From assembly GCA_016283075.1 (NCBI GenBank), contig JAEEMF010000026.1, forward strand, positions 5,270-69,269: DNA of 64,000 nt, read 5' to 3'. A program made the translations under genes and the position numbers. Below the pieces are notes generated by a model. The model saw only the letters and a program-made list of their open reading frames with translations, ran no database searches and was not told the DNA's origin. Of this stretch, positions 21,700 through 22,227 are shown one piece after another (position 1 is the first letter of the stretch; each line of letters opens with the position of its first letter). The stretch is from Bacilli bacterium (lineage in GTDB: Bacteria > Bacillota_I > Bacilli_A > RF39 > UBA660).

Positions 21700-22227
21700 A
21701 TGAACGTTTTAAAGAAAATCAAAAGTTTTATATTAACAGTGCTAGGGGTTGTATTTTTTGCATTTGCTCTAGCTATGACTATACTTTTATTAAACTATAA
21801 TAAATATGGAGTAACTCAATTTGGTGAAACATCAATTGTTTTAATAAAAAATAAGATAACTTCAGATCATTTCCAAAAAGGTGATTTAGTTATTGTTGAA
21901 GCTCAAACACTTGATACTATCAATGTTGGAGATGAAGTATTTGCTTATAAAGTAAATAAAGATGAATCAGTTACTATAGATGTTGGAGTAGTAGGAAACA
22001 TCTATAAAGATTCAAATGCTATTGTATTTGAAAATGGTTCTTCTTATGATATGGAATATGTAGCAGGTACTGCTGTTAAAAAGTATGAAAAATGGGGAGG
22101 AATACTTGCATTTATTACATCTAAATGGGGATTCTTATTCCTTATTCTAGTACCAGGTTTCTTAATATTTATTTATGAATTATATGCTTTAATTGTTGAA
22201 ATTAAGTATGGTTCAGATGTTTATTAA
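21700..22227 (+). CDS. SipW-like (S26B, archaeal/ER-type) signal peptidase homologue, apparently lacking catalytic Ser/His (pseudo-peptidase?)
   Basis: Architecture is N-TM, a beta-rich domain with 'KGDLVIV'/'VGDEVFAY' matching SipW boxes, then a C-terminal TM. The SGSM box is replaced by 'GETS' and the 'THRV' box is absent. Confidence 0.45.
   Translation: MNVLKKIKSFILTVLGVVFFAFALAMTILLLNYNKYGVTQFGETSIVLIKNKITSDHFQKGDLVIVEAQTLDTINVGDEVFAYKVNKDESVTIDVGVVGNIYKDSNAIVFENGSSYDMEYVAGTAVKKYEKWGGILAFITSKWGFLFLILVPGFLIFIYELYALIVEIKYGSDVY

Follow-up and report, generated by a model that had tools for sequence, protein, structure and literature searches.

The window, a 64,000-nucleotide stretch of contig JAEEMF010000026.1 (GenBank assembly GCA_016283075.1; positions 5,270 to 69,269 of the forward strand) from a Bacilli bacterium of the RF39/UBA660 lineage, contains a ten-gene cluster that encodes secreted proteins, two active signal peptidases of the SipW type, a McrB-like GTPase and a DUF2357 protein (Table 1). 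The subject of this study is the fourth gene of the cluster, X175, whose product an earlier note had described by eye as a SipW paralog lacking the catalytic Ser and His. We compared X175 with its active paralogs, with known structures and across 80 genomic loci that carry an X175 homolog, all of them in metagenome-assembled genomes of uncultured gut Bacilli, "Mollicutes" or "Tenericutes." X175 is a real but strongly diverged SipW/Sec11 relative. As judged from alignments it is catalytically dead, and it probably serves as a non-enzymatic membrane core subunit of a conserved surface-fiber (pilus-like) assembly apparatus.

Table 1. Features of X175 and of the surrounding cluster (window coordinates; X175 and its elements first).
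Feature	Positions	Strand	Basis
X175 coding sequence (175 residues + stop), inactive SipW/Sec11-type paralog	21700..22227	+	open reading frame (ORF), ATG start
Shine-Dalgarno AGGTGG, 4 nt 5' of the X175 ATG	21690..21695	+	direct sequence reading
X175 transmembrane (TM) helix 1, ∼residues 10–31 (predicted)	21727..21792	+	AlphaFold2 (AF2) helix 2–31; MNVLKKIKS, then hydrophobic run
X175 juxtamembrane conserved motif LLLNYNKYGVTQF, residues 29–41	21784..21822	+	column frequencies
X175 KNKIT, residues 50–54, variable loop, equivalent of SGSM box	21847..21861	+	alignments to sipW189, column frequencies
X175 KGDLVIV box, residues 60–66, common to SipW/Sec11 (GDxL/V)	21877..21897	+	alignments
X175 VGDEVFAY box, residues 76–83, common to SipW (IKVGDxV)	21925..21948	+	alignments
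X175 Gly96, paired with catalytic His (sipW189 H99/SEC11A THRV His)	21985..21987	+	ectodomain hhalign
X175 E111-N112-G113, paired with sipW189 E-D-P; N112 in place of catalytic Asp	22030..22038	+	alignments
X175 TM helix 2 + short cytoplasmic tail, residues 139–175 (SKWGFLFLILVPGFLIFIYELYALIVEIKYG...) (predicted)	22114..22224	+	AF2 helix 142–173; identity profile
Intrinsic-terminator-like hairpin + U-run, end of first transcription unit	22226..22265	+	minimum free energy −11.7 kcal/mol, z = −5.3
big1175, 1175-residue secreted or anchored protein, first gene of X175 operon	16660..20187	+	ORF; OmpL47-type domain match
tasA185, small secreted beta-sandwich protein, putative fiber subunit	20191..20748	+	AF2 N-terminal helix + jelly-roll
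p294, secreted protein, gene immediately 5' of X175	20757..21641	+	adjacency in 73/76 loci
sipWfus741, active SipW domain (fusN) + low-complexity linker + cytoplasmic fusC (residues ∼380–741)	22364..24589	+	TIGR02228 60.2 bits, above cut-off
fusC, C-terminal ∼360 residues of sipWfus741, predicted cytoplasmic	23501–24586	+	within sipWfus741 ORF
AAA515, membrane-anchored McrB-like GTPase, NxD motif	24592..26139	+	McrB PDB match; motifs
DUF2357 protein, homolog of McrC N-terminal domain	26152..27294	+	PF09823, E = 1.9e-9, 37.6 bits, above cut-off
sipW189, second active SipW, closest active relative of X175	27305..27874	+	TIGR02228 76.1 bits; SEC11A/C matches
p410, secreted protein, AWF-type N terminus	27906..29138	+	ORF, synteny
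p209, small secreted protein, divergent transcription	29216..29845	-	ORF, synteny; adjoins X175-like gene in distant lineages

In the usual order, big1175, tasA185, p294 and X175 are followed by sipWfus741, AAA515, DUF2357, sipW189 and p410, with p209 on the opposite strand, and this ten-gene cluster was syntenic in ∼80 genomes. All three genes upstream of X175 were present in 59 of 61 loci, and p294 was directly upstream in 73 of 76. The SipW-fusion gene began no more than 400 nt after X175 in 45 of 62 loci, stood 0.6–9.3 kb away with unrelated DNA between in a further 10, and was absent within 10 kb in the other 7. The position of X175 between the secreted subunit genes and the SipW-fusion gene, as the earlier note had it for the window, is confirmed and is conserved in nearly all loci. 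A hairpin with a T-run followed the X175 stop codon in 64 of 80 loci versus 3 of 74 after tasA185, indicating that the first transcription unit, big1175-tasA185-p294-X175, ends with X175.

Distant lineages (L083/84, L089, L091 and L093) have a rearranged cluster in the order X175-like, p209-like, fusN-type SipW, tasA185, p294, fusC, AAA515, DUF2357, sipW189, p410. Retention of the X175-like gene in these clusters indicates that the dead paralog is a universal component, always accompanied by two active paralogs. Every complete cluster had two active signal-peptidase paralogs and one inactive one; X175 was present in every cluster lineage examined and was single-copy in most clusters.

A hot spot of insertions lies between X175 and the SipW-fusion gene (L008 and L050; also L004, L006, L028, L041, L045, L058 and L061). 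The insert in L008 (2357–7268) encodes a 576-residue secreted protein, a reverse-transcriptase-like ORF with a YMDDF motif and small companion ORFs, and that in L050 (10525–14099) carries ABC-transporter-like genes.

Kinship of X175 to SipW and Sec11

The ORF and the three boxes that had been quoted for X175 (KGDLVIV, VGDEVFAY and, at residues 42–45, GETS) are all present. An AF2 model with 32 homologs (mean predicted local distance difference test score 78) has helices at residues 2–31 and 142–173 around an all-beta domain at residues 39–129, so that an external beta domain of ∼105 residues is flanked by two TM helices. From the Lys-rich N terminus and the modeled helices we predict an N-in, C-in, domain-out topology as in SipW, in agreement with the topology first proposed. 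At least 787 homologs of ∼175 residues without a Pfam domain were found, and the family comprises 805 clusters at 50% identity (E ≤ 1e-3). It has no Pfam or NCBIfam family of its own, and the sources that name its members call them "hypothetical protein."

The SipW paralogy of X175, previously judged by eye, is now supported by profile-profile alignment, by cross-matches of hidden Markov models (HMMs) and by structure comparison. Aligned at full length with hhalign, the X175 family matched the sipW189 orthologs with 96% probability (E = 3.8e-9), colinearly over 161 columns that include both TM helices, and TM2 of X175 has a Pro and a Glu in common with TM2 of sipW189. HMM cross-matches between the X175 and SipW families reached 1e-4 to 1e-10 in both directions in several genomes. 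The NCBIfam SipW model (NF046067) gave weak individual matches for 29 of 32 members of the X175 family; for X175 itself it scored E = 0.0022 and 17.6 bits (curated cut-off 190), and the archaeal-type signal peptidase model TIGR02228 scored 13.6 bits (curated cut-off 51.85). When the X175 model was compared by Foldseek with 350,542 PDB chains, human SEC11A ranked first and SEC11C second, followed by LexA C-domains, with Streptococcus pyogenes SipA (4n31) at rank 8 (E = 0.047).

Other searches gave weak or negative results, several of which weigh against this kinship and, with it, against the role that we propose for X175. BLASTP against sipW189 was marginal (E = 0.003) and covered only the N-terminal 79 residues, and BLASTP against fusN gave no match. 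When the family profile of X175 was searched against the PDB, no peptidase came up and the one match was a urease subunit (E = 0.01), which means that sequence profiles alone stop short of Sec11. The Foldseek matches to SEC11A and SEC11C were weak (E = 2.8e-3 and 6.7e-3; TM-score 0.45–0.51), and many Tudor domains appeared among the lower matches. Searches of Pfam and PHROGs with X175 and all 32 aligned members gave no meaningful match, S24/S26 included, and a PADLOC search with X175 gave none.

X175 might accordingly have no relation to SipW and be a bitopic-like protein whose small beta barrel is Tudor/SH3-like, with TM segments and chance accounting for the likeness. Against this, the ectodomain with its TM helices cut and a wider profile still matched the sipW189 domain with 96.6% probability (E = 5e-10) and fusN with 94.5% (E = 8e-8), the latter being picked up by the wide family profile only. 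Controls reached at most 1.5% when the ectodomain was compared with six other, unrelated families from the cluster, and at most 7.8% for full-length X175 against other TM-bearing proteins. Together with the colinearity of the full-length match, the breadth of the SipW-model matches, the first two Foldseek ranks and the Pro and Glu common to the TM2 helices, these controls make lack of kinship hardly credible. On these sequence-profile and model comparisons, we regard X175 as an established homolog of the S24/S26 fold and, more narrowly, of its SipW/Sec11 branch.

Loss of the catalytic residues and selection on X175

To locate the catalytic positions, sipW189 was aligned to SEC11A and the residues were carried to X175 by BLASTP and profile-profile alignments. 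The GSM Ser, THKV His and VED Asp of sipW189 correspond to the SGSM, VHRV and DD positions in SEC11A. The SGSM box had earlier been thought to have become GETS in X175, a register that proved ∼8 residues off: GETS pairs with KYRM of the active paralog, eight residues before the SGSM box, and the true equivalent is KNKIT (K50–T54), which places a Lys or Ile of a variable loop at the catalytic Ser. The catalytic His pairs with Gly96 or, in one alternative alignment, with the variable D88, and the catalytic Asp pairs with Asn112 within a conserved E-N-G. The alignment to the S26B family (SipW, Sec11) thus shifted the register, yet Ser and His were still absent.

Gly96, N112 and G113 were each present in 81 of 81 close orthologs of X175, in which the Ser-box positions varied. 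Among 132 representatives of the wide family, position 96 was Gly, Ala or Ser, position 112 was Asn, Asp or Gly, and a GSM or SGS motif occurred in none, so the absence of Ser and His first noticed in X175 holds for the whole family. Orthologs of sipW189 kept S56, H99 and D125 in 53 of 53 cases and those of sipWfus741 kept Ser/His/Asp/Asp in 54 of 55; the Ser/His/Asp set is lost in all X175 orthologs and kept in both active paralogs. These alignments indicate that X175 has none of the catalytic residues of SipW/Sec11, and that this holds throughout its old family.

X175 might still be an enzyme that hydrolyzes peptides, or does other chemistry, with non-canonical residues. Well-conserved polar residues of the ectodomain (T39, D62, E111 and N112), and a Ser at residue 54 in 52 and at residue 55 in 37 of the 81 close orthologs, are what such an enzyme might use. 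However, no invariant alternative pair of nucleophile and base was visible across the 132 representatives: T39 is replaced by Ser, Ala or Val, D62 by Ser, Gln or Thr, and N112 by Asp or Gly. His residues in the ectodomains were sporadic and at inconsistent places, with none at all in 62 of the 132, and the single His of X175, H57, is at a position not conserved among homologs. Near-invariance in the family is found instead at Gly, Pro and aromatic residues and at N34, which lies at the membrane edge. Among the 132 representatives N34 was the most conserved residue (129), and counts for other positions were 126 for Y83, 122 each for L63 and P152, 114 for L31, 110 for F81, 108 for G61 and 100 for Y36. 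Conservation within the protein is lowest in the ectodomain. Cryptic catalysis is therefore very improbable.

Conservation was measured as mean pairwise identity in 27 genomes with all ten cluster genes. X175 was as conserved as its active paralog (0.55 and 0.56 for sipW189), and the secreted cluster proteins ranged from 0.39 to 0.54. By region, identity in X175 was 0.74 in TM2 and the tail and 0.46–0.55 elsewhere (Ser-box region 0.54, distal ectodomain 0.46), and sipW189 showed the reverse pattern, with 0.71 in the Ser-box region and 0.40–0.52 in the TM segments. Relative to sipW189, the constraint on X175 has thus left the active site and settled on the C-terminal membrane helix. Median dN/dS by a rough Nei-Gojobori estimate was 0.34 for X175 and 0.29 for sipW189, values that are rough and upper-bound-like because dS is near saturation in this lineage of 27% GC. 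X175 is under purifying selection on a par with the active paralog, with the strongest constraint in TM2 and the tail. The identity pattern and dN/dS together indicate that the gene is functional and that its constraint is located in the membrane.

The juxtamembrane motif LLLNYNKYGVTQF is invariant in close orthologs of X175. Within it, residues 32–39 (NYNKYGVT, 21793–21816) resemble the ends of the neighbors' signal peptides, TYSRY (p209), TYSIF (tasA185) and SYAKY (p294), and may be either an uncleavable pseudo-substrate or inherited structure. In the former case X175 would be a membrane anchor that mimics a signal-peptide end, occupies the groove of an active SipW or donates a strand to the basal subunit, and tethers the fiber to the membrane. 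The peak of wide-family conservation at N34 and the place of the X175-like gene immediately 5' of a p209-like gene in distant lineages would suit such an anchor. A likeness four residues long is, however, likely to be chance, the F-S-x-N of sipW189 at the aligned place is also conserved, so the motif may be an inherited juxtamembrane structure, and residues 39–41 form a strand of the domain itself in the AF2 model. We consider the anchor quite unlikely.

Partners and proposed function of X175

The C-terminal domain of the SipW fusion, fusC, occurred in three settings: joined to an active SipW, as in the window, free (L084:3609–4616, L089:13190–14182 and L091:8595–9575), and joined to a dead domain of the X175 type (P0172 at L081:1048–3273, P0148, P0179 and P0266). 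The place of the fusion gene in L081 is taken by the dead-domain fusion, and a second X175-like gene there adjoins a free fusN-type SipW. No other finding speaks as strongly as this reshuffling of domains for the view that X175, the fusN SipW and fusC may act together. In a mirror-tree comparison, the distances of X175 tracked those of fusC, DUF2357 and AAA515 best (r = 0.56–0.62), and its partial correlation with the secreted proteins was negative; the direction, toward the machinery rather than the subunits, is a weak hint that carries no significance test. Searches with 20 members of fusC gave no Pfam or PDB match, and a degenerate EAL-like domain, considered for fusC, was rejected because neither database supported it in those members.

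Two further features of the active paralogs were also seen. sipW189 has Leu or Ile at the first Asp of the GDxN box of Sec11/SipW (KGLTN versus KGDNN). Antisense ORFs of 148 residues (22678–23124, minus strand) and 79 residues (23377–23616, minus strand) overlap the part of the fusion gene that encodes its Lys/Glu-rich linker; both are Ser/Phe/Leu-rich and of low complexity, and the repeats of the AT-rich coding strand almost certainly give rise to them as artefacts.

The GTPase of the cluster, AAA515, had McrB as its best and sole PDB sequence match and matched the PADLOC candidate PDC-M26A at 2e-38. Its Walker A and B motifs were invariant in 54 of 54 orthologs, in which the N-N-D-(D/E) form of the NxD signature (N356-N-D358-D359) was invariant or near-invariant, and an N-terminal hydrophobic segment (∼56–79) is followed by a short charged helical stretch. 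These features recall CoCoPALM, a system named in one paragraph of Bell et al. (eLife 2024; PMC11090510) with its description deferred to a later publication. Literature searches found no such publication, and the supplementary text of that paper, on CoCoNuT, gave no details of CoCoPALM. Like CoCoPALM systems, the window cluster has a McrB-like GTPase with an NxD motif and the usual Asp or Glu after it, an adjoining gene for DUF2357, the McrC homolog, and genes of the signal-peptidase family. CoCoPALM is described with an FtsB-like TM segment and coiled coil on the GTPase, where AAA515 has, by sequence alone, the hydrophobic segment and charged stretch; the paragraph does not tell active from inactive signal-peptidase paralogs and does not mention fusC or the subunit genes. 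By its gene content, the X175 cluster appears to fit CoCoPALM.

We propose that the TM helices of X175, chiefly the constrained TM2, pair with the active fusN-type SipW and with fusC, and that the resulting membrane platform of pseudo-enzyme and enzyme would be tied to the cytoplasmic module of the McrB-like GTPase and DUF2357. The remnant peptide-binding domain of X175 would hold or present signal-peptide-bearing beta-sandwich subunits without cleaving them, and this uncut presentation would lead to ordered cleavage and polymerization, as proposed for S. pyogenes SipA. The earlier note had pointed out that inactive peptidase homologs often act as chaperones or scaffolds; such a role for X175 is one that we infer, and the shift of conservation to its membrane helix, its membership in the core of the cluster, the fusC fusions and the SipA precedent (PMC4049620) argue for it. 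Besides the weak direct matches given above, several points tell against the proposal. The residue mapping derives from profile alignments at ∼20% identity, between which the place of the His changes (G96 or D88) and that of the Ser differs by one residue; the dN/dS values are rough; the mirror-tree hint has the limit stated; and the neighbors are not demonstrably TasA homologs, which makes the fiber itself conjectural. Taking both sides together, we hold the role in fiber assembly to be probable.

The same membrane constraint could also mark a regulatory decoy or brake, with X175 competing with the active SipWs for signal peptides or partner sites, so as to time or limit cleavage, or signaling across the membrane through TM2 and the tail. 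It has the fold and topology of the active paralogs, its strongest constraint falls on TM2 and the cytoplasmic EIKYG tail, and an X175-type domain is fused to cytoplasmic fusC in some lineages; the C-terminal tail of Bacillus subtilis SipW reportedly has a signaling role independent of peptidase activity. However, X175 is co-transcribed stoichiometrically with structural genes, universal and mostly single-copy, which is more like a structural subunit, and its tail is merely ∼9 residues. A decoy seems unlikely on these grounds, although computationally nothing separates it from the scaffold that we favor.

X175 can be compared with several known proteins. Like SipW and Sec11 (S26B; TIGR02228, NF046067), it has an N-terminal TM helix, an external beta domain, a C-terminal TM helix with Pro and Glu, and GDxhhh and hxVGDxh boxes, and like SipW it has genes for secreted subunits next to its own, with an aromatic-small-x-aromatic pattern at the end of their signal peptides. 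Unlike SipW and Sec11, it has no catalytic Ser, His or Asp, scores far below the curated cut-offs, and is conserved in TM2 and not in the active-site boxes. SipA of S. pyogenes has its Ser and Lys replaced by Asp and Gly, keeps the peptide cleft and is essential for pilus polymerization (PMC4049620). Both proteins have a signal-peptidase fold without catalytic residues, are encoded inside a surface-fiber gene cluster (putative for X175), and have a Gly in place of the general base (a Lys in the case of SipA, and the His at Gly96 in that of X175). SipA, however, derives from the P-type Ser/Lys family S26A, and X175 derives from the endoplasmic reticulum/archaeal Ser/His family S26B and has a second TM helix. 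SipA serves sortase-assembled, wall-anchored pili, whereas the X175 cluster has two active SipWs and a McrB-like GTPase, and Pfam and NCBIfam scans of its ten proteins detected no sortase domain. The two inactivations are independent events.

Non-enzymatic accessory proteins for the ordered polymerization of TasA-type fibers, TapA in B. subtilis and CapP/BC1280 in Bacillus cereus, are described in two reports (PMC10151520; bioRxiv 10.1101/2024.02.27.582368). The role proposed for X175 would resemble theirs in being non-enzymatic and accessory, and all are encoded with SipW and subunits. TapA and CapP/BC1280 differ from X175 in being secreted or wall-associated, without relation in sequence or fold and without the signal-peptidase fold with two TM helices.

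An inactive signal-peptidase homolog in a fiber operon (SipA) and the name CoCoPALM were already known; inactivation in S26B, in a different machine, is new, and literature searches found no paper on a SipW-type pseudo-peptidase. The only inactive homologs known to help build pili belong to the Ser/Lys lineage, S26A, in the form of streptococcal SipA. If our reading is true, X175 is an independent, ancient and widespread S26B case (805 clusters), and loss of catalysis with retention of a peptide-binding fold would be a recurrent route to assembly factors. X175 would also give a concrete component to CoCoPALM, named yet without a published description, in abundant uncultured gut Bacilli of reduced genome. 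Taken alone, X175 is a solid rather than a startling pseudo-enzyme; its system, and its link through fusC to the McrB-like motor, could interest more. The relationship of X175, fusN and fusC probably links an external peptidase module to the cytoplasmic GTPase. We regard as possible, but doubtful, the further proposal that X175 is the non-catalytic platform subunit of CoCoPALM as a new class of nucleotide-powered surface-fiber machine, in which a membrane heteromer of pseudo-SipW and active SipW is coupled via fusC to the membrane-anchored McrB-like GTPase and its McrC-like partner, with cytoplasmic GTP hydrolysis gating or driving ordered cleavage and polymerization of the beta-sandwich subunits outside; a restriction-enzyme motor would in that case have been recruited for pilus assembly.

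The secreted neighbors

The neighbors of X175 had been called TasA-like. The description finds weak support for tasA185, in a low-scoring match to Pfam Peptidase_M73 (PF12389; 13.8 bits, cut-off 22.5) and a jelly-roll model, but the match stands at E = 0.05 and Foldseek returned generic jelly-rolls; 7ueg, a TasA-like bundling pilin from archaea, came no higher than rank 39 (TM-score 0.38). PDB profile searches with the neighbors returned no match, TasA included. The hydrophobic N termini of tasA185, p294 and p209 end in the aromatic-small-x-aromatic pattern noted above, and that of p410 in LAWF; the pattern resembles the TasA/SipW type of signal peptide. From the model and these N termini, the neighbors are plausible TasA-like fiber subunits.

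The best promoter-like site of the region (29901–29873, minus strand; TTGATA-17-TATAAT, 11 of 12 matches) lies just 5' of the monocistronic p209. A promoter-like sequence of this kind would fit p209 as the major subunit, with the highest expression.

Upstream of the cluster, at 9228–13949, lies another group of genes. In two of them (9916–11307 and 11381–12718) the hydrophobic N termini end in (S/T)x(F/Y)AWFIGMQTV, a motif similar to the LAWF of p410, whose HMM matches these proteins at the N terminus only. The products of these two genes may be further substrates of one of the SipW paralogs.

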